From positions 3,826,007 to 3,890,006 of the forward strand of contig OZ242167.1 of assembly GCA_965205295.1 (NCBI GenBank): a stretch of 64,000 nucleotides of DNA, written 5' to 3'. Shown in pieces: positions 4,849 to 62,733 of this stretch (positions are counted from its first letter, which is position 1; each line of letters opens with the position of its first letter). The notes below the pieces were generated by a model. It made no database searches. It was given only the letters and a program-made list of their open reading frames with translations, and was not told the origin of the DNA. This stretch comes from Candidatus Multivorans sp. GTDB taxonomy: Bacteria > Acidobacteriota > Thermoanaerobaculia > Multivoradales > Multivoraceae. The position numbers and the translations under genes were made by a program.

Positions 4849-7224
4849 TTGTCGAGGGCGCCGGTGATCCGCTCGGACGATGGCGCCCGCCGGTTCGGTC
4901 TGGGCGGACTGCCGGCGGGTAAGAGCGTCGAACTGATCGGCCTCCTCCTGCTCGCCCTGGGCGCACTGCTGCTGCTCAGCCTGCTGAGTTACCACCCGAG
5001 CGACCCCAGTTTCTTGCGGAGCGGCGCGAACTCCGGCGAGACGGAGAACCTGATCGGTCCGGTCGGCGCCCAGGTCGCGGCCGCCGGCTACGGGGTTCTG
5101 GGGCTTGCTGTCGTGGCGGTGGCGTTGGCGGTTGTCGGCTTGGGCTACCGGCTCGTGCGTGCGCGCGGCAGGTTTCCTTCGATTCTGCAGACCGCCGGCA
5201 TTGCCGTCGCGCTGATCGCCTTGCCGATCATGATCGATCTCGCTGTCGAGGAAGTGCAGATCCGCGGCGAGCCCCTGGTTGCCGGCGGTCTCGTGGGGTC
5301 AACGATCTCCGATGGCATTCAAAGCCAACTGGGAGTCATCGGCGCCGCGGTCATCGCCCTGTTCGGGCTCGTGTTCGGCATCGCGCTGACCATGCGAGGC
5401 AGCCTTGAGGAGTGGCTGGCCGCGGCTCTGGGCCGGCTCAAGGAACTGGTCGTTCTTCTCAGGGGGAGACTGAGGCGCGGGCCGAAGACCGCCAGGGCGA
5501 AGAAGGCCGGCCGGCGCGAAAGGGCGGTCACGGCCGCGTCTGCCGCCGACTCAACGCTTCAGGAACTCACCCTCCGCAAGGCGCCTCCGGAGAAGATGGT
5601 CGAGGTCGCCCGACCGAACCCCGCACGGTCGGAGGAGTCGGCTCTCCCCATGGCGGCGCCGAAGGTGAATCCGCCTGCATCCTTGGTGGCCAAGCCGAGC
5701 AACGGCACGGGCGCACAGACGGCCGACAGCCCCGAGCTGCCGCCGATCGATCTGCTGTACTGCGAGGAAGTCAACTCGGAAGTCGACGAGGATGGGGTCC
5801 GTGAGCTTGGCGAGCTGATCTGTGCCCGCTGTGCGGAGTTCGGTGTCGAGGGGACGGTCGAGGGGATCAGCCCCGGACCGGTGATCACCGTCTTCGAGTT
5901 CCAGCCGGCGCCGGGCGTCAAGGTCGCCCAGATCGTCAACCTGCAGGACGACCTGGCGCTCGCCTTGAAGGCGGAAGCGATCCGGATCGATCGCATGCAG
6001 GGCCGCTCCACGCTCGGCATCGAAGTGCCGAATACGCGGCGAACGGTCATTCCACTGGGTCGCCTGCTGGACGCTCCCGAGTTCCGGGCGAGTACGTCGC
6101 CCCTGACCATGGCGTTGGGGCGGACGCTGCGCGGCGAGCCGTACTACGCCGATCTGACGAAGATGCCGCACCTGCTGGTTGCGGGCGCCACCGGCGCCGG
6201 CAAGAGCGTCGGCCTGCAGGGGATGCTGACTTCGATCCTGTACAAGGCGCGAAGCGATGAGGTCCAGTTCATCCTGATCGATCCGAAGCGGATCGAACTG
6301 GGGGTCTACGCGGACATTCCGCACCTCAAGACCGCGGTCGTGGTGGAGCCGAAGCAGGCTGCGAACGCTCTTCGCTGGGCGGTATCGGAGATGGAGCGCC
6401 GCTACCGGCTGCTGGCCGAGGTGCACGTCCGATCGATCGCCTTCTACAACCAGGCGATCGCGGATCCGGAGGTGGCCCGGCGCCTGCGGCTCCGGGACGA
6501 AGAGGCCGACGAAGGGGTGGCGCCGCGCGACTTCGAACCTCTCCCGTACTACGTGATCGTGATCGACGAGCTGGCCGACCTGATGATGGTGGCTTCGTCC
6601 GAGGTCGAGACGTCGATCGCCCGGCTCGCGCAGATGGCCCGGGCCGTTGGCATCCATCTGATCGTTGCCACCCAGCGCCCGTCGGTCGACGTGCTGACCG
6701 GCACGATCAAGGCGAACTTCCCGTGCCGGATCTCGTACGCGGCCGCCACGCGACACGACTCGCGCACGATCCTCGATCAGATCGGAGCCGAGAAGCTGCT
6801 GGGCAAGGGCGACATGCTGTTCATGCCGCCCGGCAGCGGCCGCACGATCCGCCTGCACGGCGCCTACGTCACCGAGCAGGAGACGGCCGCGCTGGTTCGC
6901 TGGCTCAAGCGCCAGGGCCAGCCGAACCTGGATCCGGCGGTGCTGGAACCGCCGCCGGAAGATCGGGCGGCTGCTGGAGGCGAGCACGGAGGCGGAGACG
7001 CGCTCTACGATGAGGCCGCGCGCCTGGTGGTCTCGGAACGGATGGGATCGGCGAGTTTCCTTCAGCGTCGCATGAGGGTCGGCTTCTCCCGCGCCTCCCG
7101 CCTGGTCGACCTGATGGAGCAGGACGGAATCCTGGGGCCGGCCCAGGGCAGCAAGCCGCGCGACGTCCTGGTGCCGCCTGACTTCTTCGAAGAGATCGAG
7201 CAGTCCCAGATCGCGTTCGAGTAG
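4849..7224 (+). CDS. ftsK: DNA translocase FtsK/SpoIIIE
   Basis: The N-terminus is polytopic (LLSLLSYHPSDPSF). A long Pro/Ala linker follows. Walker A is GATGAGKSVGLQ, and a C-terminal gamma winged-helix is present (ASFLQRRMRVGFSRASRLVDLMEQDGILGP). Confidence 0.93.
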   Translation: MSRAPVIRSDDGARRFGLGGLPAGKSVELIGLLLLALGALLLLSLLSYHPSDPSFLRSGANSGETENLIGPVGAQVAAAGYGVLGLAVVAVALAVVGLGYRLVRARGRFPSILQTAGIAVALIALPIMIDLAVEEVQIRGEPLVAGGLVGSTISDGIQSQLGVIGAAVIALFGLVFGIALTMRGSLEEWLAAALGRLKELVVLLRGRLRRGPKTARAKKAGRRERAVTAASAADSTLQELTLRKAPPEKMVEVARPNPARSEESALPMAAPKVNPPASLVAKPSNGTGAQTADSPELPPIDLLYCEEVNSEVDEDGVRELGELICARCAEFGVEGTVEGISPGPVITVFEFQPAPGVKVAQIVNLQDDLALALKAEAIRIDRMQGRSTLGIEVPNTRRTVIPLGRLLDAPEFRASTSPLTMALGRTLRGEPYYADLTKMPHLLVAGATGAGKSVGLQGMLTSILYKARSDEVQFILIDPKRIELGVYADIPHLKTAVVVEPKQAANALRWAVSEMERRYRLLAEVHVRSIAFYNQAIADPEVARRLRLRDEEADEGVAPRDFEPLPYYVIVIDELADLMMVASSEVETSIARLAQMARAVGIHLIVATQRPSVDVLTGTIKANFPCRISYAAATRHDSRTILDQIGAEKLLGKGDMLFMPPGSGRTIRLHGAYVTEQETAALVRWLKRQGQPNLDPAVLEPPPEDRAAAGGEHGGGDALYDEAARLVVSERMGSASFLQRRMRVGFSRASRLVDLMEQDGILGPAQGSKPRDVLVPPDFFEEIEQSQIAFE

Positions 7225-7392
7225 GAGGCTGTGCCGAAGAACGCTACGGAGTGAGTTCTGCAGGCACGGCCTGCTACTGAGGTGGGGGATGGGGCCAGGC
7301 ACCGAGTCTGCGAGGGGCTTGGCGGCGGTAGCGGCGCTGTCCGCCGGGGACGGGGCGCCTTGGTCGACGGGTCGCGTAGTCTCCCGGGCATC

Positions 7393-8391
7393 GTGTCCGC
7401 GCCGCGAAGACTCAACCGGATCGCCTTCTTCGGCACGCCCGACTTCGCGGTCCCGGCACTAGGCGCCCTGGAGGAGGCTGGCCGGCGGCCGGTACTCGTT
7501 GTCAGCCAGCCGGCGCGGCGGGCGGGTCGCGGCGGCCGTCTGGCCCAACCGCCCGTGGCTCGCTGGGCGCTCGACCGGGGCGTCGACCTGCTGCAGCCGA
7601 CGGGCGTGCGCGGCGCCGACTTCCTCGGCCGGCTGCGCTCCCTGGCGCTCGACCTTGCCGTGGTTGCGGCGTACGGTCGCATCTTCCCGCGCGCCCTGCT
7701 CGAACTGCCGGCGGGCGGCTGTGTGAACATTCATGCGTCGCTGTTGCCCGCCTATCGCGGTGCGTCACCGATTCAGGCCGCGATAGGGGGCGGAGAGCGG
7801 AACACCGGTGTGACGACGATGGTCATGGAGGAAGGACTCGACAGCGGACCGATCCTGCTTCAGGAAGAGGCGCCGATCGGCGTGGACGAGACCGCCGGCG
7901 AGTTGTCACCGCGGCTGGCCGCGATCGGCGGCCGACTTCTCGTCCGCACGCTTGAGGCGTTGGAGGCCGGGGCCGTCGAGCCGCGGCCGCAGTGCGACGC
8001 GGCGGCGACCTATGCCCCGATGCTGCGCCCTTTGGACGGCATCGTGGACTGGCGCCGGGAGTCGAGACAGATCGCCTGGCGGGTGCGCGCCTACGAGCCG
8101 TGGCCGGGGTCGCGGAGCTGGCTTCGCGGCGAGGCGGTACGGATCGTCACGTCGAGGCCGCTGGCATCGTGTGCCCAGCTCGATGGCCAGGCCGACCTGG
8201 ATCGACCTGGCGCCTTCCTCGGCTGCCGGAGAGTCGAGGGAGTCGGACGGGCGCCGGTGGTCCGGTGCGGCGGATCGTCGGCGCTGGCGCTTTGCCGGGT
8301 GCAGCGGCCCGGCGGCCGGCAGATCAGCGGCCTCGATCTGGCAAACGGGCTGCGGCTCGCCGTGGGCGAACGCTTCGGAACGGCGGCATGA
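7393..8391 (+). CDS. fmt: methionyl-tRNA formyltransferase
   Basis: Motifs IAFFGTPDFAVPAL and HASLLPAYRGASPIQAAI are present, followed by a C-terminal Fmt domain. The start was chosen at the GTG just before the LNRIAFFG segment. The stop overlaps the rsmB ATG as ATGA. Confidence 0.88.
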   Translation: MSAPRRLNRIAFFGTPDFAVPALGALEEAGRRPVLVVSQPARRAGRGGRLAQPPVARWALDRGVDLLQPTGVRGADFLGRLRSLALDLAVVAAYGRIFPRALLELPAGGCVNIHASLLPAYRGASPIQAAIGGGERNTGVTTMVMEEGLDSGPILLQEEAPIGVDETAGELSPRLAAIGGRLLVRTLEALEAGAVEPRPQCDAAATYAPMLRPLDGIVDWRRESRQIAWRVRAYEPWPGSRSWLRGEAVRIVTSRPLASCAQLDGQADLDRPGAFLGCRRVEGVGRAPVVRCGGSSALALCRVQRPGGRQISGLDLANGLRLAVGERFGTAA

Positions 8392-13023: not shown

Positions 13024-14610
13024 ATGGACGTGCAGCCGATGCCGCGGATCCTGATTGCCGATTCCCTGGCGCCGGCAGGCGTCGAGTTGCTGCGCGAGAG
13101 CGCGGAAGTGGACGAGCTTCGAGACGAGGATCGTCCACGGCTCGCCTCGTTGATCGCGAACTACGACGCGGTCATCGTGCGCAGCGGAACCCAGATCACC
13201 CGCGAGGTTCTGGAGGGCGGCGACCGTCTCAAGGTGGTGGGCCGTGCCGGGGTGGGCGTCGACAACATCGACATAGCAGCCGCTACGCAGCGCGGCGTGC
13301 TGGTGATCAACGCGCCGACCGCCAACTCGCTTTCGGCCACCGAGCACACATTCGCCCTGCTGCTGGCGCTGGCGCGGCGGATTCCGTCGGCCGACGCGTC
13401 GCTCAAGGCGAAGCGCTGGGACCGCAAGAGCCACGTGGGCAGCGAGCTGCAGGGGAAGGCGCTCGGCGTGATCGGCTTCGGTCAGATCGGTCGGCGGGTG
13501 GCCACCCGGGCCCGGGCCTTCGAGATGGAAGTGCTCGCCTACGACCCCTTCCTGCAGGCGGAGGTTGCGCGGCGACTCGATGTCGAGCCGGTGGCTCTGC
13601 GTGATCTGCTCGCCCGGTCCGACTTCATCACCTTCCACACGCCGCTTACGGATCAGACCAGGAACATGCTCGACGAATCGCGCATTGCCCTGATGAAGGA
13701 CGGCGCGGCCGTGATCAACGTCGGGCGCGGCGGAGTGGTCGACGGCGAGGCGCTGCTCGCGGCGCTCGAGTCCGGCAAGCTCGCCGGCGCGGGTCTGGAC
13801 GTGTTCCCGGAGGAACCGCCGTCGGACTACCGGCTCGCTGCCCACCCGAACGTGGTGGCGACGCCCCACATCGGCGCCCAGACGACCGAGGCGCAGGAGC
13901 GCATCGCCACCGAGACGGCCCGCATGGTGCTCGCCGCGCTTCGTGGCTCGCTCGCGGTGTCGGCGGTGAATCTGCCGTTCCGATCCTCGGGTTCTCGCGG
14001 CGAACCGTTCCTGCGGTTGGGCGAGCAACTCGGCCGGCTGGCCGCGGTTGCGCTCGGCGGCAGCCTGCAGCGTATCCAGGTGGACCTGTGGGGCATCGAC
14101 GACGATTTGAGGAAATCGGCTGCGGTGGCCGCGCTCAAGGGCGCACTGACGCCGTCCTGCGGCGAGGCGGTGAACTACGTGAATGCCGAGCGCACGGCTG
14201 CCGACCGCCGCATCGAACTCGTGCAGGCCACCCACAGCGACCAGGCCACGTACGCTCACCTGGTGCGGGTCGAGGCCAGGAACGCCGAAGGGGGCAGCAT
14301 TCAGGTCGCCGGAACCGTCTACCGCCGGGGGGACCTGCGGGTCGTCTCGTTCGCGGGCTTCCGGTTGGAGTTCAAACCCCAGGGCCTTCTGCTCATCATC
14401 CGCAACGAAGATGTCCCCGGGTTCGTGGGCCGGCTCGGCACGCTGCTCGGCGACGACGGCATCAACATCGCCGACATCCACCTGGCCCGTGAACCGGGCG
14501 CCCACGCCCTGGCCGTCCTGCGTCTCGACGAGGCCCCGAACGAGGCGTGCATGGCCGCGCTGCTGGCCCTGGACGAATCGATCTCGGTCGACCTCGTCGA
14601 CCTTTCGTAG
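13024..14610 (+). CDS. serA: D-3-phosphoglycerate dehydrogenase with C-terminal ACT domain
   Basis: An NAD-binding GFGQIGRRVA motif, the 2-hydroxyacid DH catalytic region and a C-terminal ACT (LLIIRNEDVPGFVGRLGTLLGDDGINIA) are present. The alternative ATG at 13039 (MPRILIAD) is the more typical start. Confidence 0.9.
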   Translation: MDVQPMPRILIADSLAPAGVELLRESAEVDELRDEDRPRLASLIANYDAVIVRSGTQITREVLEGGDRLKVVGRAGVGVDNIDIAAATQRGVLVINAPTANSLSATEHTFALLLALARRIPSADASLKAKRWDRKSHVGSELQGKALGVIGFGQIGRRVATRARAFEMEVLAYDPFLQAEVARRLDVEPVALRDLLARSDFITFHTPLTDQTRNMLDESRIALMKDGAAVINVGRGGVVDGEALLAALESGKLAGAGLDVFPEEPPSDYRLAAHPNVVATPHIGAQTTEAQERIATETARMVLAALRGSLAVSAVNLPFRSSGSRGEPFLRLGEQLGRLAAVALGGSLQRIQVDLWGIDDDLRKSAAVAALKGALTPSCGEAVNYVNAERTAADRRIELVQATHSDQATYAHLVRVEARNAEGGSIQVAGTVYRRGDLRVVSFAGFRLEFKPQGLLLIIRNEDVPGFVGRLGTLLGDDGINIADIHLAREPGAHALAVLRLDEAPNEACMAALLALDESISVDLVDLS

Positions 14611-14636
14611 TCGGAGCCGGGCACGGGTGGCGGTGG

Positions 14637-14827
14637 GGCGCACCCGCCGGCTGGGGGCTCAGGGGGGTCCACCTCCAGGTGGCGTGAGCGCTCTCTGAGT
14701 TCTGGAGGGGGTGGCGCTCACTCCACTCCGCTCGCTTCGGTACGTTGTCGGTTTCTGTGAGGATCCGGGGCGTCGCTCGCTCCGAGGCACCTGGAGGTTG
14801 ACCCCCCTGAGCCCCTGGCGCCGGCTG
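14637..14827. repeat. MITE-like ~190-bp element, copy A, with ~28-bp terminal inverted repeats (GGGGCTCAGGGGGGTCCACCTCCAGGTG ... CACCTGGAGGTTGACCCCCCTGAGCCCC)
   Basis: The reverse complement of 14637-14827 matches 17150-17340 almost base for base, including flanks. Internal palindromes are present (GTGAGCGC...GCGCTCAC). The copy sits 27 nt after the serA stop, upstream of purB. Confidence 0.85.
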
Positions 14828-14889
14828 AGACGCGTGTTTGCCGGCTAAACCTCAGCGCCGTCAACAACTTGCGCTGGTAGACTTCGCCC

Positions 14890-16320
14890 ATGGCCGCAGC
14901 GAGGGAAGCACCGCAGAATCCGCTTCACGAGCGTTACGCGAGCGCGGAGATGGCGCGGCTGTTTTCGGGCCGGCACCGCTTCCGGACCTGGCGTCGGATG
15001 TGGATCTGTCTGGCCGAAAACCAGGCGGCGCTGGGGCTGCCAATCAGCGAGCGACAGCTCGCCGCGCTGCGCGAGCATGCGGACGATCTCGACCTGGAGC
15101 GGGTGGCACAGCTCGAACGCGAAACGCGCCACGATGTGGTGGCCCACCTGCGACACTTCGCCGAAGTCAGCGGCGACGCCGGCAGCATTCTTCACCTGGG
15201 CGCGACGTCCGCGTTCATCACCGACAACACGGACGTGCTGATCATCCGGGAGGCCCTCGACCTGGTCGCGGGCAGGCTGACGGCCACAGCCGCCGAGCTG
15301 GCCAGCTTCGCCCGCAGGGAGCGCGCAACGACCGCGCTCGCCTACACCCACTTCCAGTCGGCCCAGTTGACGACACTGGGCAAGCGCGCCTGCCTCTGGC
15401 TGCAGGACTTCCTCACCGACCTCGAAGAAGTGGCCAATCGCCGCGACCGGCTGCGCTGCCGTGGCGCCAAGGGCACCACCGGCACGCAGGCCTCCTTCCT
15501 GACCCTGTTCGGCGGCGACCACGGCAAGGTCCGCGAACTCGACGCCCGGGTGTCCACGGCGCTGGGCTTCGACTCGAGTTGGCGGATCACCGGCCAGACC
15601 TACCCGCGCAAGCAGGACAGTCAGGTCCTGCACGCACTGTCCGGAGCCGCGGAGAGTTGCCACAAGTTCGGCAGCGACCTGCGGCTGCTGCAGGGCGTTG
15701 GCGAACTGTCCGAGCCCTTCGACGAGAACCAGGTCGGTTCCTCGGCGATGGCCTACAAGCGCAACCCGGTGCGGGCCGAGCGCATGTGCTCGTTGTCGCG
15801 GCGGATCATGACCGACTCCCTGCACGGCGCCCTGAATGCAGGCACGCAGTGGCTGGAGCGCAGTCTCGACGACTCGGCGAACCGACGCCTGGTGCTGACC
15901 GACTGTTTCCTGACCGTCGATGCCGTGCTGCTTCTGGCCGCGAACATTGCCCAGGGCCTGTGGGTGAACGAAGCTGCAACCGCCGCCCGAGTGAGGCGCG
16001 AACTTCCGTTCATGGCCACCGAGACCTTCCTGATGGAGGCGTCGCTGCGCGGCGGCGACCGTCAGGAACTGCACGAGCGCATTCGCCAGCACAGTCTCGA
16101 GGCCTACGCGCGGGTCTCCGCGGGGGAGCCGAATCCGCTGATCGACCTGATCGCGGCCGATCCGTCGTTCGGGCTCGGCCGGGACGAGCTCGAATCCCTG
16201 GTCGACGCGGATTCCTTTACGGGGCGCTCTGCCCAGCAAGTCGACGATTTCCTGGCTGAGGCTGTCGAACCGGCGCTGGAACGGCACCGCGCCGCGGCGG
16301 TCGAGGCGCCGAGGGTGTGA
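14890..16320 (+). CDS. purB: adenylosuccinate lyase
   Basis: The 476-aa product has fumarate-lyase family motifs (GATSAFITDN, TGQTYPRKQD, SSAMAYKRNP). Confidence 0.92.
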   Translation: MAAAREAPQNPLHERYASAEMARLFSGRHRFRTWRRMWICLAENQAALGLPISERQLAALREHADDLDLERVAQLERETRHDVVAHLRHFAEVSGDAGSILHLGATSAFITDNTDVLIIREALDLVAGRLTATAAELASFARRERATTALAYTHFQSAQLTTLGKRACLWLQDFLTDLEEVANRRDRLRCRGAKGTTGTQASFLTLFGGDHGKVRELDARVSTALGFDSSWRITGQTYPRKQDSQVLHALSGAAESCHKFGSDLRLLQGVGELSEPFDENQVGSSAMAYKRNPVRAERMCSLSRRIMTDSLHGALNAGTQWLERSLDDSANRRLVLTDCFLTVDAVLLLAANIAQGLWVNEAATAARVRRELPFMATETFLMEASLRGGDRQELHERIRQHSLEAYARVSAGEPNPLIDLIAADPSFGLGRDELESLVDADSFTGRSAQQVDDFLAEAVEPALERHRAAAVEAPRV

Positions 16321-17042
16321 GCCGGACACGGTCACTGGCCGCACTGGTTGGCGTCCTGTTCTCGGTCGGCTGCGCTTCGACCTCGGCTCTCGAAACCCCT
16401 CGCCGCGGGACCACCCAGGAAGGACTCGCGTCCTGGTACGGCGCGCAGTTCAACGGCCGAGCCACCGCCAGCGGCGAGGTCTACGACATGAACCGAATCT
16501 CCGCGGCCCACAAGCAACTGCCCTTCGGCACCGTCGTCGAAGTCGAGAACAGGGACAACGGCCGCAAACTGCGGCTCCCGATCAACGACCGCGGCCCGTT
16601 CATCAAGGGCCGGATCATCGATCTTTCACTGGGTGCCGCGCGGCAACTCGACATGTTCGGCGCTGGGCTCGCCAGGGTGCGAATTCGCGTCGTGCAGATG
16701 GCGCCCGAAGGCCGCAACCTGCCGATCTCCTACCCGGCGAACGGACGTCCCCCGAAGAACTCTCGTGCCGAGGCCGCGCGCAAGGCGGCGCCCAAAGCCT
16801 CATCACCGGCTCGCCGAAACGAGCGCTCCGGCTTCACGATCCAGGCCGGCGCGTTCAGGGAACGCAGCGGGGCCGTCGATCTGGCCCGTCGCCTCCGCCG
16901 CGATCTCCGCCTGGACAAGGTCAGGATCCGCGAGGAAGCTGGCTGGTACCGCGTTCAGATCGACCGCCGGCGCCAGAAGGCCGCCGACCTCGTACGACAG
17001 AAACTGGAGAAAGCCGGTATCGCCGCGATCGTTCTACGCTGA
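16317..17042 (+). CDS. rlpA: septal ring lytic transglycosylase RlpA-family lipoprotein with C-terminal SPOR domain
   Basis: A lipobox FSVGC is followed by a DPBB domain (GLASWYGAQFNGRATASGEVYDMNRISAAHKQLPFGT) and a SPOR-like C-terminus. The GTGA start overlaps the purB stop. Confidence 0.85.
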   Translation: MSRTRSLAALVGVLFSVGCASTSALETPRRGTTQEGLASWYGAQFNGRATASGEVYDMNRISAAHKQLPFGTVVEVENRDNGRKLRLPINDRGPFIKGRIIDLSLGAARQLDMFGAGLARVRIRVVQMAPEGRNLPISYPANGRPPKNSRAEAARKAAPKASSPARRNERSGFTIQAGAFRERSGAVDLARRLRRDLRLDKVRIREEAGWYRVQIDRRRQKAADLVRQKLEKAGIAAIVLR

Positions 17043-17149
17043 TTGCGGGGCTCACCCGCCTGGTCCTCTTGGAAGACCAAAGAGTGTCGGCAGGTTCAGT
17101 TCCGCCACGGTTCCCGACCGCCCGGCCGCCGGTTCTTCGACGACGTCCA

Positions 17150-17340
17150 GCCGGCGCCAGGGGCATGGGGGGGTCAACCTCCAGGTGCCTCGGAGCGAGC
17201 GACGCCCCGGATCCTCACAGAAACCGACAACGTACCGAAGCGAGCGGAGTGGAGTGAGCGCCACCCCCTCCAGAACTCAGAGAGCGCTCACGCCACCTGG
17301 AGGTTGACCCCCCCATGCCCCCAGCCGGCGGGTGCGCAGC
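17150..17340. repeat. MITE-like ~190-bp element, copy B (inverted relative to copy A)
   Basis: This copy is near-identical to the reverse complement of 14637-14827. It fills the space between convergent rlpA (stop 17042) and argF (stop 17343-17345) exactly, and may act as a bidirectional terminator. Confidence 0.85.
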
Positions 17341-17342
17341 AG

Positions 17343-18263
17343 CTACGCGCGGTCGAGGAGGCGCAGCATGACGGCCTTCTGGGTGTGCATGCGGTTCTCG
17401 GCCTGGTCGAAGACGCGGCTCCGGGGGCCGTCCACGACCGAGGCGGTGACCTCCTCGCCCCGGTGGCACGGCAGGCAGTGGAGGTAGATCGCGTGATCGG
17501 CCGCCCGGGACATCAGGTCGTCGTCGACGGTGTAGCCCTCGAAGTCGGCGAGCCGTTGCTTTCGCTCCTCCTCCTGGCCCATCGAGGTCCAGACGTCGCT
17601 GTAAACGGCGTCCGTGCCGGCGGCGGCGGCCTGCGGGTCGGCGCCGGTTTCGATCCCGGCGCCGGTATCGGCGGCGAGTTCGCGTGCGAGGTCGAGGTAC
17701 TTGTCCGCGACTTCGTAGCCCGGAGGCGAGGCGATGGAGAAGTCGAGACCGGCGCGGGCGCAGGCGATCATCAGGGAGTGCGCGACGTTGTTGCCGTCGC
17801 CGATGTAGGCGATCCTTCGACCACGCAGTTCGCCGAACTCCTGGCGGACGGTCATCAGGTCGGCGAGCGCCTGACAGGGGTGCAGTTCGTCGGTCAGCCC
17901 GTTGATCACGGGCACGTTGGCGTGTTCGGCCATCTCCACCACGGTGCTGTGCTCGAAGGTGCGGAGCATCAGGAGGTCCACGTATCGCGACAGGACGCGG
18001 GCGGTGTCCGCGATCGTCTCCCCGCGGCCGATCTGCAGGTCGCGGTTGGAGAGGAAGATCGCCTGGCCTCCGAGTTGCGCCATCCCGGCCTCGAAGCTGA
18101 CCCGGGTTCGAGTGGACGCCATCTCGAAGTAGAGACCGATCGACTTGCCCCTGAGCGTGTCGCGATGTGACTGGGGCCTGGATTCGAGTTGCAATGCCAG
18201 CTCGAGAATCGACTCGAGTTGACCGTCTTCGAGGTCGGCGATCGAGATCAGGTGTTCGGGCAT
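17343..18263 (-). CDS. argF: ornithine carbamoyltransferase
   Basis: STRTRVSFE, HPCQALADLMT, DVWTSMGQE and HCLPCHRGEEV motifs indicate OTC rather than ATCase. The start was set at ATG 18263 (cat 18261-18263), preceded by a GGAGGGAGG RBS. The track ORF extends spuriously to 18743. Confidence 0.9.
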   Translation of the reverse strand: MPEHLISIADLEDGQLESILELALQLESRPQSHRDTLRGKSIGLYFEMASTRTRVSFEAGMAQLGGQAIFLSNRDLQIGRGETIADTARVLSRYVDLLMLRTFEHSTVVEMAEHANVPVINGLTDELHPCQALADLMTVRQEFGELRGRRIAYIGDGNNVAHSLMIACARAGLDFSIASPPGYEVADKYLDLARELAADTGAGIETGADPQAAAAGTDAVYSDVWTSMGQEEERKQRLADFEGYTVDDDLMSRAADHAIYLHCLPCHRGEEVTASVVDGPRSRVFDQAENRMHTQKAVMLRLLDRA

Positions 18264-18369
18264 GTGAGGCCTCCCTCCGTTGGGCCGGATCGTATGGGGC
18301 GGGCTACACTGCCTGTCCCTTGGCTCTCTCTCGGGGCGAATAATACACCACTCTGGCGCACGATTATTC

Positions 18370-18969
18370 ATGACGAGTTCCAGGCGCCGACAGGTGAGCG
18401 GCGGAAACGGCAACGAGCGACCGTGGGTGCTGGTCACCGGGAACGCCAACAAGCGGCGAGAGGCGGAACGGATCGTCGGCCACCGGCTGGAGACGGTGGA
18501 GATCGACCTGCCGGAGATCCAGTCGGGCGACCTGATCGAGGTGCTGCGGTTCAAGGCCGAGTCCGCCTGGCAGCGGCTCGAGCGGCCGGTTGTCGTCGAG
18601 GAGACCGGTCTGGAACTGGCCTGCATGAACGGCTTTCCAGGTCCGCTGGTGAAGTGGATGCTGGAGGCGGTCGGCGACGAAGGCATTGCGCAGATCGCGA
18701 TTCGCGCCGGCGACCCGGGCGTCGTGGCCCGGTGCGCCCTCATGCTCCTGGACGGTGAGCGGGAGGTGATCGCCGAGGGCTCGACCGCCGGCAGGCTGGT
18801 GCTGCCGCCGCGAGGCGTGGGTGGCTTCGGCTGGGATCCGGTGTTCGAGCCCGACGGACTCGAGCGGACCTACGCCGAACTCGGCGCCGAGGTCAAGGAC
18901 CGGATCGGCCACCGCGGCCGCGCCTGGCGCGAGTTCCTGCGGGCGCTCGGTACCGATCCGCGGCTCTAA
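18370..18969 (+). CDS. rdgB: non-canonical purine NTP pyrophosphatase (RdgB/Ham1/ITPase family)
   Basis: Motifs LVTGNANKRRE, ETGLELACMNGFPGPLVKW and FGWDPVFEP are present. The gene is divergent from argF, with a ~107-bp shared region. Confidence 0.85.
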   Translation: MTSSRRRQVSGGNGNERPWVLVTGNANKRREAERIVGHRLETVEIDLPEIQSGDLIEVLRFKAESAWQRLERPVVVEETGLELACMNGFPGPLVKWMLEAVGDEGIAQIAIRAGDPGVVARCALMLLDGEREVIAEGSTAGRLVLPPRGVGGFGWDPVFEPDGLERTYAELGAEVKDRIGHRGRAWREFLRALGTDPRL

Positions 18970-25657: not shown

Positions 25658-25733
25658 GCCGGCATAGCTCAGTTGGTAGAGCAACTGCCTTGTAAGCAGT
25701 AGGTCCTCGGTTCGAATCCGGGTGCCGGCTCCA
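25658..25733 (+). tRNA. tRNA-Thr (anticodon TGT)
   Basis: The cloverleaf was folded by hand. The acceptor is GCCGGCA/TGCCGGC, the D arm AGCTCAGTTGGTAGAGC, the anticodon stem ACTGC/GCAGT with loop CTTGTAA, the T arm CTCGGTTCGAATCCGGG, and the 3' end is CCA-encoded. Confidence 0.9.
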
Positions 25734-25747
25734 CGGAGGAAGTTGCC

Positions 25748-25834
25748 GGAGGTGTGGCCGAGCGGTTAAAGGCAACAGACTGTAAATCTGTCGGGCAAAG
25801 CCCTACGGTGGTTCGAATCCATCCGCCTCCACCA
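25748..25834 (+). tRNA. tRNA-Tyr (anticodon GTA), class II with long variable arm
   Basis: The acceptor is GGAGGTG/CGCCTCC, the anticodon loop CTGTAAA, the variable arm CGGGCAAAGCCCTA and the T arm GGTTCGAATCC. The 3' end is CCA-encoded. Confidence 0.9.
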
Positions 25835-25854
25835 CTTCTTCCTTTTGCGGGCGT

Positions 25855-25929
25855 GCGGGAGTAACTCAGGGGTAGAGTCACAGCCTTCCAAGCTGTTGGT
25901 CGCGGGTTCGAATCCCGTCTCCCGCTCCA
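25855..25929 (+). tRNA. tRNA-Gly (anticodon TCC)
   Basis: The acceptor is GCGGGAG/CTCCCGC, the anticodon stem ACAGC/GCTGT with loop CTTCCAA, and the T arm GCGGGTTCGAATCCCGT. The 3' end is CCA-encoded. Confidence 0.9.
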
Positions 25930-35067: not shown

Positions 35068-35135
35068 TCGTCGGGCGTCGCTCGTTCGGAGGCACCTGGG
35101 AGCTGACCCCTCCCAACCCCGACTGGGCTGGAGGT
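35068..35135. repeat. solo degenerate terminal fragment of the 190-bp MITE-like element
   Basis: GGGCGTCGCTCGTTCGGAGGCACCTGGGAGCTGACCCCTCCC aligns to the right arm and TIR of copy A (GGGGCGTCGCTCGCTCCGAGGCACCTGGAGGTTGACCCCCCT). It lies just after the citE-like gene. Confidence 0.6.
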
Positions 35136-35183
35136 CGTTGCCGAGAGGGCTGACGCACGAGGCAAGGCACCGACCGCTTTCAG

Positions 35184-45413: not shown

Positions 45414-46195
45414 GCGCTCCCGCGCCGGCGATCGCCGACTCCGACTTCGCGATCGACGTCGTCGACCTGGCGATTCGTTACCAGGGAAAGTTGGCGCTCT
45501 CGGGCGTCACGCTCCGGGTGCCAAGGAACGAGATCTTCGGCGTTATCGGGCCGGCGAACAGCGGCAAGACGTCCTTCCTGCGCGCCATCAACCGGATGGA
45601 CCTGATGACGGCGGGGATGACGGTCGAGGGCGCGGTGCGTGTCGAGGGCCGGGACGTCCGCAGTTGGCGCAATCCCTATGCCCTGCGACAGCGAATCGGC
45701 GTGGTGTTCCCGCTGCCTGTGGGCCTGCCGATGACCATCTACGAGAACGTCGCGCTGTCGTCCCGGCTGCGCGGCACGCGAAGGAAGGCCGACCTGGACG
45801 TGATCGTCGAACGCTGCCTGCGGCGGGCCGCGCTCTGGGACGAGGTGAAGGACCGGCTCGATTCCCTGGGCAGCCTGCTGTCGGGCGGCCAGCAGCAGCG
45901 GCTGACGATCGCGCGCGCGCTGTCCCAGGATCCGTCGATCCTGCTGCTCGACGAGTTCTCGATCGCGGTCGACCCCGTGACCACGATGCGGATCGAGGAG
46001 GTGCTGGCGGAGCTCAAGTCCGAGATGACGATCGTGCTGGTCACGAACCTCGTCCAGCAGGCGCGGCGGTTGGCTTCGCAGACCGCCTTCTTCCTCACCG
46101 GCGAGCTGGTCGAGGTGACCGAGACGGAGGCGATGTTCGAGGGCGGCGCCCAGGATCCGCGGACCACTGCCTACGTCGAGGGGAAGTTCGGATGA
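45407..46195 (+). CDS. pstB: phosphate ABC transporter ATP-binding protein PstB paralog 1 (H-loop His replaced: TNLVQQA)
   Basis: Walker A is GPANSGKTS, the signature LSGGQQQRL and Walker B LLLDEF. The canonical PstB THNMQQA H-loop reads VTNLVQQA. The GTG start overlaps the pstA stop. Confidence 0.85.
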   Translation: MVSAPAPAIADSDFAIDVVDLAIRYQGKLALSGVTLRVPRNEIFGVIGPANSGKTSFLRAINRMDLMTAGMTVEGAVRVEGRDVRSWRNPYALRQRIGVVFPLPVGLPMTIYENVALSSRLRGTRRKADLDVIVERCLRRAALWDEVKDRLDSLGSLLSGGQQQRLTIARALSQDPSILLLDEFSIAVDPVTTMRIEEVLAELKSEMTIVLVTNLVQQARRLASQTAFFLTGELVEVTETEAMFEGGAQDPRTTAYVEGKFG

Positions 46196-62559: not shown

Positions 62560-62625
62560 AACCCGTGTGGCGCGCCCCGCGCCACACGCGAACCACTCCG
62601 TGCGCCCGTCATCGGGCGCACGGAT
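62560..62625. promoter_or_regulatory. two perfect palindromes in the porin/phoB divergent region (CGTGTGGCGCG-ccc-CGCGCCACACG; GTGCGCCCG-tcat-CGGGCGCAC)
   Basis: The palindromes are seen directly at ~62564-62588 and ~62600-62622. They are candidate operator or terminator elements between the divergently transcribed Pho-regulon genes. Confidence 0.4.
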
Positions 62626-62733
62626 GGCACGCGGGCATCTTGCCCGCAGCCGGCGCGCAGGGCCGGCCTTCGGAAGTTCTGCCGCGCCAGCCTTGGGTCA
62701 GGTCAACCGCATGATGGGGGTGCCGGACAATCC

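Follow-up and report, generated by a model that had tools for sequence, protein, structure and literature searches.

A low-copy inverted-repeat element and the two orientations of purB-rlpA in Candidatus Multivorans-like Thermoanaerobaculia

The purB-rlpA locus and its repeat pair

The DNA analysed here, referred to as the window, is a 64,000-nt stretch of contig OZ242167.1 from a Candidatus Multivorans genome (phylum Acidobacteriota, class Thermoanaerobaculia). Within it, purB and rlpA lie as a co-directional pair between serA and a convergent argF, and the pair is bracketed by two inverted copies, A and B, of a short non-coding repeat. An earlier note made from the sequence alone had described these as near-identical copies of about 190 bp with 28-bp terminal inverted repeats (TIRs), and had likened them to a miniature inverted-repeat transposable element (MITE) or a REP-like element that could invert the genes between them. 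The present analysis is concerned with the anatomy of this element, its occurrence in related genomes, and the inversion of the segment that it encloses.

A repeat search of the window located the pair at 14638-14827 and 17148-17337. The copies are 190 nt each, 96% complementary, and separated by 2320 nt, in agreement with the earlier description. By direct extraction, copy A and the reverse complement of copy B differ at seven positions, every one of which is in the terminal repeats, and there are no differences between the two 106-nt interiors. Read in the sense of copy A, each copy is composed of GCGCACC, the 9-mer CGCCGGCTG, a left TIR (TIR-L) of 28 bp, the interior, a right TIR (TIR-R) of 28 bp, the linker TGG, and a second CGCCGGCTG. 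The element proper may be considered as the 165-bp core between the 9-bp direct repeats.

The sequence of the TIR is GGGGCTCAGGGGGGTCAACCTCCAGGTG. Its arms match at 27 of 28 positions in copy A and at all 28 in copy B, so that the 28-bp TIRs of the earlier note stand; copy A carries CTCAG on both arms and copy B carries CATGG on both. TIRs are kept in 14 copies of the element, and a 20-nt core of the TIR matches the window at four places, where chance alone would give 0.01. Folding, which had been suggested as a check, produced a long hairpin for each copy (-122.6 kcal/mol) that lies far beyond shuffled sequence (z = -6.65), as does the opposite strand (z = -5.98). At 165 bp, the core is within the size of a MITE (less than about 500 bp), and it is non-coding. 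No conserved open reading frame (ORF) was found in the element, and a hidden small ORF was rejected, since indels of 1 nt between the copies disrupt the only long frame inside the element.

Both copies present the same end to the stop codon of the upstream gene, which is serA for copy A (27 nt away) and argF for copy B (5 nt away). This orientation rule is also obeyed by a relic at 35 kb and by an element at an unrelated locus, both of which are described below. Copy B had been said to fill exactly the gap between two convergent stop codons. This is not the case, since 105 nt are left on the side of rlpA (stop codon at 17040-17042) and only the argF stop (17343-17345) abuts the copy. The rlpA product has DPBB and SPOR domains. 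The coordinates of the features are collected in Table 1.

Table 1. Features of the repeat-bearing locus and of the relic, in window coordinates
Feature	Position	Strand	Basis or remark
serA (D-3-phosphoglycerate dehydrogenase), fixed left flank	13024..14610	+	Pfam 2-Hacid_dh_C, PGDH_inter, ACT
GCGCACC, final unit of the 17-nt repeat GCGCACCCGCCGGTGCN, which relatives carry in tandem at this point; shared left flank of the target site	14638..14644	+	
Copy A, left direct repeat CGCCGGCTG (putative target-site duplication)	14645..14653	+	single copy in the L068 empty allele
Copy A core, 165 bp: TIR-L 14654-14681, interior 14682-14787, TIR-R 14788-14815, linker TGG	14654..14818	+	
Copy A, right direct repeat CGCCGGCTG	14819..14827	+	
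Invertible segment: purB leader 14828-14889, purB 14890-16320, rlpA 16317-17042, 105-nt spacer	14828..17147	+	Pfam
Copy B, direct repeat on the rlpA side (CAGCCGGCG on the + strand)	17148..17156	-	single copy in the L079 and L100 empty alleles
Copy B core, 165 bp, inverted relative to copy A: TIRs 17160-17187 and 17294-17321	17157..17321	-	
Copy B, direct repeat (17322-17330) and GGTGCGC flank (17331-17337)	17322..17337	-	5 nt from the argF stop
argF (ornithine carbamoyltransferase), fixed right flank	17343..18275	-	Pfam OTCace_N, OTCace; start placed by the length of homologs (306-310 aa)
Degenerate solo R end: about 20 nt of subterminal sequence and TIR, with flank	35073..35137	+	profile search, BLAST

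Copy number and the filled, empty and interrupted sites

Loci from related genomes that were compared with the window are designated by L-numbers. An 18-nt core of the TIR, searched against one genome per GTDB species, was found in 95 places, six of which are real matches. All six belong to the class Thermoanaerobaculia of the Acidobacteriota and several are labelled Candidatus Multivorans. A look-up of rlpA homologs added ten further syntenic loci. In complete chromosomes the TIR core occurs solely at the purB locus or at locus L015, with at most two TIR-bearing places per chromosome. The window itself holds two copies and one relic, and a profile made from ten copies matched nothing further in it. 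The element family is low-copy and lineage-restricted, and the term "multicopy" in the earlier note cannot be maintained. Collections of viral contigs, plasmids and phages contained no matches to the element, and an origin from any of these was rejected on that basis.

The third fragment that had been noted at about 35.1 kb is real, but it is shorter and weaker than was claimed. BLAST detects 38 nt at 87% identity (35073-35110), and the profile search extends the match to the boundaries given in Table 1 with E = 5.6e-6. The relic sits 37 nt after the stop codon of a CoA-ester-lyase gene, is oriented like copy A, and has GGGCTGG repeats on its flanks; it is not present in the close relative L108. 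A further instance of the target motif at 45455 falls within the coding sequence of pstB and was rejected as a chance match.

Alleles with and without the element could be compared directly. At site B, L079 and L100 are empty and read GACGACGT-CCAGCCGGCG-GGTGCGC with one 9-mer, where the window has 174 nt more. Site A is empty in L068, again with one 9-mer left. In L098, the site on the purB side (X) is empty (approximately 5418-5443), and the rlpA side retains a 14-nt footprint, CCAGGGGCATGGGG, at 7747-7760, which reads as an imprecise deletion. The target-site duplication that the earlier note had proposed to look for is present: CGCCGGCTG flanks each core, occurring twice at filled sites and once at the empty ones (L079, L100, L068 and site X of L098), and it is the same 9-mer everywhere. 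In the more distant outgroups L103 and L105, the intergenic regions are compact (21-96 nt) and contain neither the element nor the flank motifs, so the repeat-free state is ancestral.

The TIRs were also found at an unrelated locus, L015, where they (6394-6419 and 7357-7382) surround approximately 990 bp and have similar flanks. Over this interval (6394-7382), the outer part of the TIRs has co-varied to GGGGTCTGGGGGTC. The cargo includes a small Cys/Gly-rich ORF with a signal peptide (approximately 6700-7095) in lower-GC DNA, and the arrangement resembles a mobile insertion cassette (MIC).

In two loci, L005 (217-3873) and L086 (5262-8000), foreign DNA lies inside the element at the same internal point, with CTCACTCC at both junctions as an 8-bp duplication. 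The block in L005 is about 3.6 kb and contains a 5'-truncated P4-type tyrosine integrase and an IS3-family element. As the two loci belong to different sub-clades, the insertion is suggested to have passed between them by recombination that made use of the element's conserved halves. The interruption raised the idea that the interior serves as an attachment site for tyrosine-integrase islands. This was rejected, since the integrase is truncated at the junction and its full-length homologs (88-89% identity) lie elsewhere with neither the element nor a tRNA nearby. In L099 (7702-13382), about 5.5 kb of cargo separates two remnants of the rlpA-side copy, an R part at 7702-7805, which has decayed, and an L part at 13334-13382. 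The cargo encodes an ADP-ribosylglycohydrolase, an IS630-like DDE_3 transposase with helix-turn-helix ORFs, and an Exo_endo_phos protein.

The immediate surroundings of the element are also repetitive. A second module of about 165 nt adjoins the element and is present or absent between direct repeats of GTCGTCGA (L036:2069-2235; L106:3344-3510 and 5770-5936). The window and L079 are without this module and, compared with L036, have lost about 230 nt upstream of purB. Downstream of the serA and argF stop codons, tandem repeats of 16-18 nt (GCGCACCCGCCGGTGCN) are found in one to four units (L036:1795-1870, L106:3100-3150, L068:7570-7620). Each neighbouring pair of units forms a short GGTGC/GCACC hairpin, and the target 9-mer represents a variant form of the final unit.

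Inversion of the purB-rlpA segment

The suggestion in the earlier note that the pair could invert purB-rlpA is borne out by close relatives, in which both orientations are found with breakpoints at the copies. In the window and in L100, L079, L036, L086, L068 and L096, the order is serA, site A, purB, rlpA, site B and a convergent argF. In L098, L099, L106 and L005, as well as in the repeat-free outgroups L103 and L105, the order is argF, site X, purB, rlpA, site Y and a convergent serA. The clearest comparison is that of L036 with L106, which are 95-98% identical over the region and opposite in arrangement. Their alignments change strand within the repeats, and diagnostic substitutions locate the exchange either at the element's outer edge or within the module beside it. 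The window and L100, when set against L098 and L099, provide a second case. In a neighbour-joining tree of purB, L036/L106 (100% bootstrap) and L079/L099 (73%) are sister pairs of opposite orientation, from which at least three flips in the clade are deduced.

Traces of exchange are also present within the copies. L100, the closest relative of the window, carries a chimeric copy whose left arm has CTCAG and whose right arm has CATGG, which is the expected outcome of an exchange between copies. Since arms reshuffle between copies in this manner, the apparent "compensatory" triplet in the stem can be explained without selection on pairing. Homologous recombination of the RecA type between inverted repeats of 190-350 bp would be the mechanism of flipping.

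The TTGCGCTGGTAGACT block directly upstream of the purB ATG moves with the segment, and recognizable variants of it are present even in the repeat-free outgroups. In the window, it forms part of a conserved block, GCTAAACCTCAGCG...TTGCGCTGGTAGACT, within 14846-14889 that ends 9 nt ahead of the purB ATG. Here, TGGTAGACT resembles an extended -10 element; if it serves as one, the purB mRNA would have a very short leader or be leaderless. A third arrangement was observed in the more distant L104 (2823-6736), where CoaE, purB and rlpA are followed by a convergent argF and serA is elsewhere. The neighbourhood has thus been rearranged even outside of the repeat-bearing clade.

Interpretation and competing explanations

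The observations are best accounted for, with a probability of about 0.6, by a low-copy, non-autonomous TIR element of MITE-like character that flips purB-rlpA by acting as a recombination substrate in Candidatus Multivorans-like Thermoanaerobaculia. By transposition, the element would have entered a single specific motif, (GCGCACC)CGCCGGCTG(GACGTCGTCGA), which lies just downstream of the serA and argF stop codons, and CGCCGGCTG would have been duplicated over 9 bp in the process. Inverted copies 2.3 kb apart would then have served as substrates for the homologous recombination by which purB-rlpA was flipped several times in the clade. Some copies have been lost through deletion between the 9-bp repeats, and others have received foreign DNA. 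In either orientation, purB-rlpA is read in the same direction as a gene upstream of it, serA or argF, and the conserved promoter-like block travels with purB; for these reasons the flips were probably tolerated as near-neutral changes. Of the MITE-like character proposed in the earlier note, the anatomy stands (small size, absence of coding, 28-bp TIRs, 9-bp duplication, filled and empty alleles, and a solo end) and the multiplicity of copies does not.

Several results weigh against this reading. The exact 18-nt TIR core is confined to a single 8-kb block in every one of four complete chromosomes from relatives, and a metagenome scan made with a 32-nt end pattern returned two contigs, both syntenic. 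The many dispersed copies expected of a MITE were not found by these scans, which diverged copies elsewhere could escape. No transposase or parent insertion sequence (IS) bounded by the TIRs was present among the 95 TIR-core matches, the two metagenome contigs, or the viral contigs, plasmids and phages. Moreover, all occupied sites have the same 9-mer and flanks. Given this uniformity, what looks like a target-site duplication could instead be a core for recombination, or it could be a repeat internal to some larger unit that was duplicated. In L036 and L106 the inverted homology does run approximately 165 nt past the core, through the second module described above. The motif common to the sites is (GC[G/A]CACC)CGCC(C)GG..CTGG(A...); since all sites share it, either insertion is strongly site-specific or the true repeat unit exceeds the TIR-bounded core. 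Finally, the element is 88-96% identical between genomes in which the four-fold degenerate sites of purB are 65-75% identical and other spacers 65-81%. A decaying neutral relic would not be expected to be conserved to this extent.

This conservation, far above that of the purB four-fold sites and adjacent spacers, is central to a first alternative, in which the element is a selected and structured functional module, possibly a domesticated MITE, in the 3' untranslated regions of serA and argF. Such a module could block 3' exonucleases or be a substrate of RNase III; it could also terminate transcription without a U-tract, or serve as an insulator, where genes converge or follow in tandem. For some bacterial MITEs, regulation of neighbouring mRNAs by the transcript of the element is known (PMC2229807, PMC2649163). 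The stem of about 40 bp is GC-rich, the 106-nt interior is conserved, the hairpin is very stable on both strands, and the orientation relative to the upstream stop codon is constant at all four sites. Variation is mostly restricted to one apical loop and falls into two haplotypes that are independent of site and species. The alternative is nevertheless held to be unlikely, as one or both copies are absent in L079, L100, L068 and L098, and the outgroups are without the element altogether. Three compensated base pairs in the window speak in its favor, but they come from copy B alone and uncompensated stem mismatches are about as frequent. Covariation is uninformative, since 94% of the alignment columns are identical, and the chimeric L100 copy, with its mismatched arms, demonstrates that strict pairing is not maintained; an RNA structure supported by covariation was rejected accordingly. 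A known RNA family was rejected as well, given that Rfam returned no relevant family for the window at the gathering threshold (three tRNAs only) and, at E <= 10, a single chance match to a plant miRNA hairpin. Neither a sigma-70-like promoter nor a U-tract terminator consensus was found in 14400-17600, and the T-run of an intrinsic (Rho-independent) terminator does not follow either copy. The proposal in the earlier note that copy B acts as a bidirectional terminator is thus not supported.

The conservation may reflect purifying selection on a useful hairpin module, or the copies may be younger than the split of their hosts, whether by site-specific re-insertion or by recombinational gene flow at the locus. 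The absence of either or both copies in places, the uninformative covariation and the mismatched stem of L100 would favor a selfish or neutral element. If the hairpin has an effect at all, it may be exerted at the level of RNA.

The shared flanks bear on a second alternative, a local inverted segmental duplication in which an intergenic block composed of the flanks, the hairpin and the downstream module was copied as a unit, and not transposed. The "empty sites" would in that case be secondary, hairpin-promoted deletions between the 9-bp repeats. Sites A and B have in common GCGCACC on one side and GACGTCGTCGA on the other, the shared flank amounting to 7 + 9 nt on the first side and, in relatives, 11 to more than 100 nt on the second (more than 100 nt in L036 and L106). 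For this reason, the statement in the earlier note that the copies do not fit a local duplication was too strong. Full-length copies are found at the purB locus alone, and the adjoining 165-nt module is likewise present or absent between GTCGTCGA repeats. However, TIR and subterminal sequence at two unrelated loci (L015 and 35.07 kb of the window) is difficult to reconcile with a local event. Perfect 28-bp TIRs around a non-palindromic interior would not be expected from a plain duplication, and the precise loss at four independent sites, each with one 9-mer, fits insertion at least equally well. A segmental duplication is accordingly judged to be quite improbable.

The uniform 9-mer could also be read as the mark of a maintained, site-specific hairpin cassette in place of a decaying transposon, with the 9-bp repeats as crossover cores for a host or trans-acting recombinase and not as target duplications of the DDE type. 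The cassette would be an RNA or DNA module under purifying selection, active where genes of amino-acid biosynthesis end, and a flip that moves purB-rlpA from the control of serA to that of argF, or back, could be a switch that is put to use. This is regarded as very unlikely. A programmed switch of the Hin/Fim type, in which a dedicated invertase toggles the coupling of purB-rlpA between serA and argF, would suit the recurrent flips in the clade and the co-directional reading from an upstream amino-acid biosynthesis gene in both orientations, but it can be set aside as highly improbable because no recombinase gene is found near the locus in the window or in the syntenic neighbourhoods of ten or more loci, the L036/L106 crossover lies in extended homology and not in a fixed core, the orientation of the repeat-free outgroups represents the ancestral order, and inverted repeats of 190-350 bp are enough for ordinary homologous recombination.

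Among known systems, the Correia elements (CREE, or NEMIS) of Neisseria are the closest match to the MITE-like element in both anatomy and behaviour. They are approximately 100-160 bp with TIRs of about 24-26 bp and, like the present element, are non-coding, form a long hairpin, lie between genes, and show insertion polymorphism between strains (PMC3454330, PMC2649163, PMC2229807). Inversions through recombination of one copy with another have been proposed for them in Neisseria gonorrhoeae (PMC3454330). In contrast to CREE, which have hundreds of copies, a TA duplication, and promoter and IHF motifs, the present element has one or two copies per genome and a 9-bp duplication of a fixed sequence. 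Its sequence is unrelated, the Correia TIR of about 26 bp is not among its features, and no promoter- or IHF-like motif was detected in it. Other bacterial MITEs such as ERIC, RUP and RPE have in common with it the small size, the TIRs, a target-site duplication, the lack of an ORF, and a stable stem-loop in the transcript (PMC2229807, Table 1). Most of them are multicopy and dispersed with short duplications of the TA type and often an identifiable parent IS, unlike the present element, which is very low-copy with a sequence-specific target and no parent IS found.

REP, BIME and REPIN sequences are similarly extragenic, palindromic and close to the 3' ends of genes, and the neighbouring 17-nt GCGCACC...GGTGC hairpin repeats do look REP-like. 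REPs, however, are units of 20-40 nt in tens to hundreds of copies that make no target duplication and require a RAYT transposase. The 165-bp element has none of these properties, and the designation "REP-like" in the earlier note fails with respect to size, copy number and flanking duplication. MICs are derived from IS231. The L015 variant is reminiscent of them in that the same TIRs enclose about 990 bp of cargo with a small Cys/Gly-rich ORF and no transposase; it differs in that no link to the IS231/IS4 family is shown, and its cargo may represent later insertions into a short element. As to the flips, they are comparable to inversions between inverted IS or rRNA copies, given the flanking inverted homology, both isomers in relatives, and junctions inside the repeats. 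They are distinguished from these by repeats of merely 190-350 bp and a segment of 2.3 kb that holds two housekeeping genes.

Repeat-driven rearrangement is well documented at this locus and is, as a phenomenon, familiar. What is unusual is the completeness of the comparative series, a natural set that extends from the ancestral state through insertion to both isomers and also includes secondary insertions and losses of the precise and the imprecise kind. The series shows a 190-bp inverted pair reshuffling housekeeping genes across short evolutionary distances. A documented small mobile element would be added for the Thermoanaerobaculia of the Acidobacteriota, a phylum known almost only from metagenome-assembled genomes, and it has no relative in the Rfam, plasmid, phage or viral collections searched. 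The top full-text literature matches for Candidatus Multivorans and Thermoanaerobaculia included none on repeats in the lineage. Pairs of this kind can produce mis-assembly, mis-binning and apparent breaks of synteny in metagenome-assembled genomes. Only one feature, the conservation in excess of the neutral level, has the potential to lead to a less ordinary reading.

Some minor observations were made elsewhere in the window. The argF ORF as called (17343-18743) encodes 466 aa; given homologs of 306-310 aa, the true start is probably near 18275 and the upstream 150 codons would be a spurious high-GC open frame. Upstream of a response-regulator-like gene, a cluster of GC-rich hairpins, among them GTGTGGCGCG...CGCGCCACAC and CCGTGCGCCCG...CGGGCGCACGG, occupies 62561-62690. 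With 86-89% identity, two parts of this cluster recur in the L015 cassette, and L098 has a comparable stretch at 5340-5415; from these matches, it looks like a second small repeat family of the lineage. The three tRNA genes that were the sole Rfam matches at the gathering threshold are adjacent to each other on the + strand at 25658-25926.

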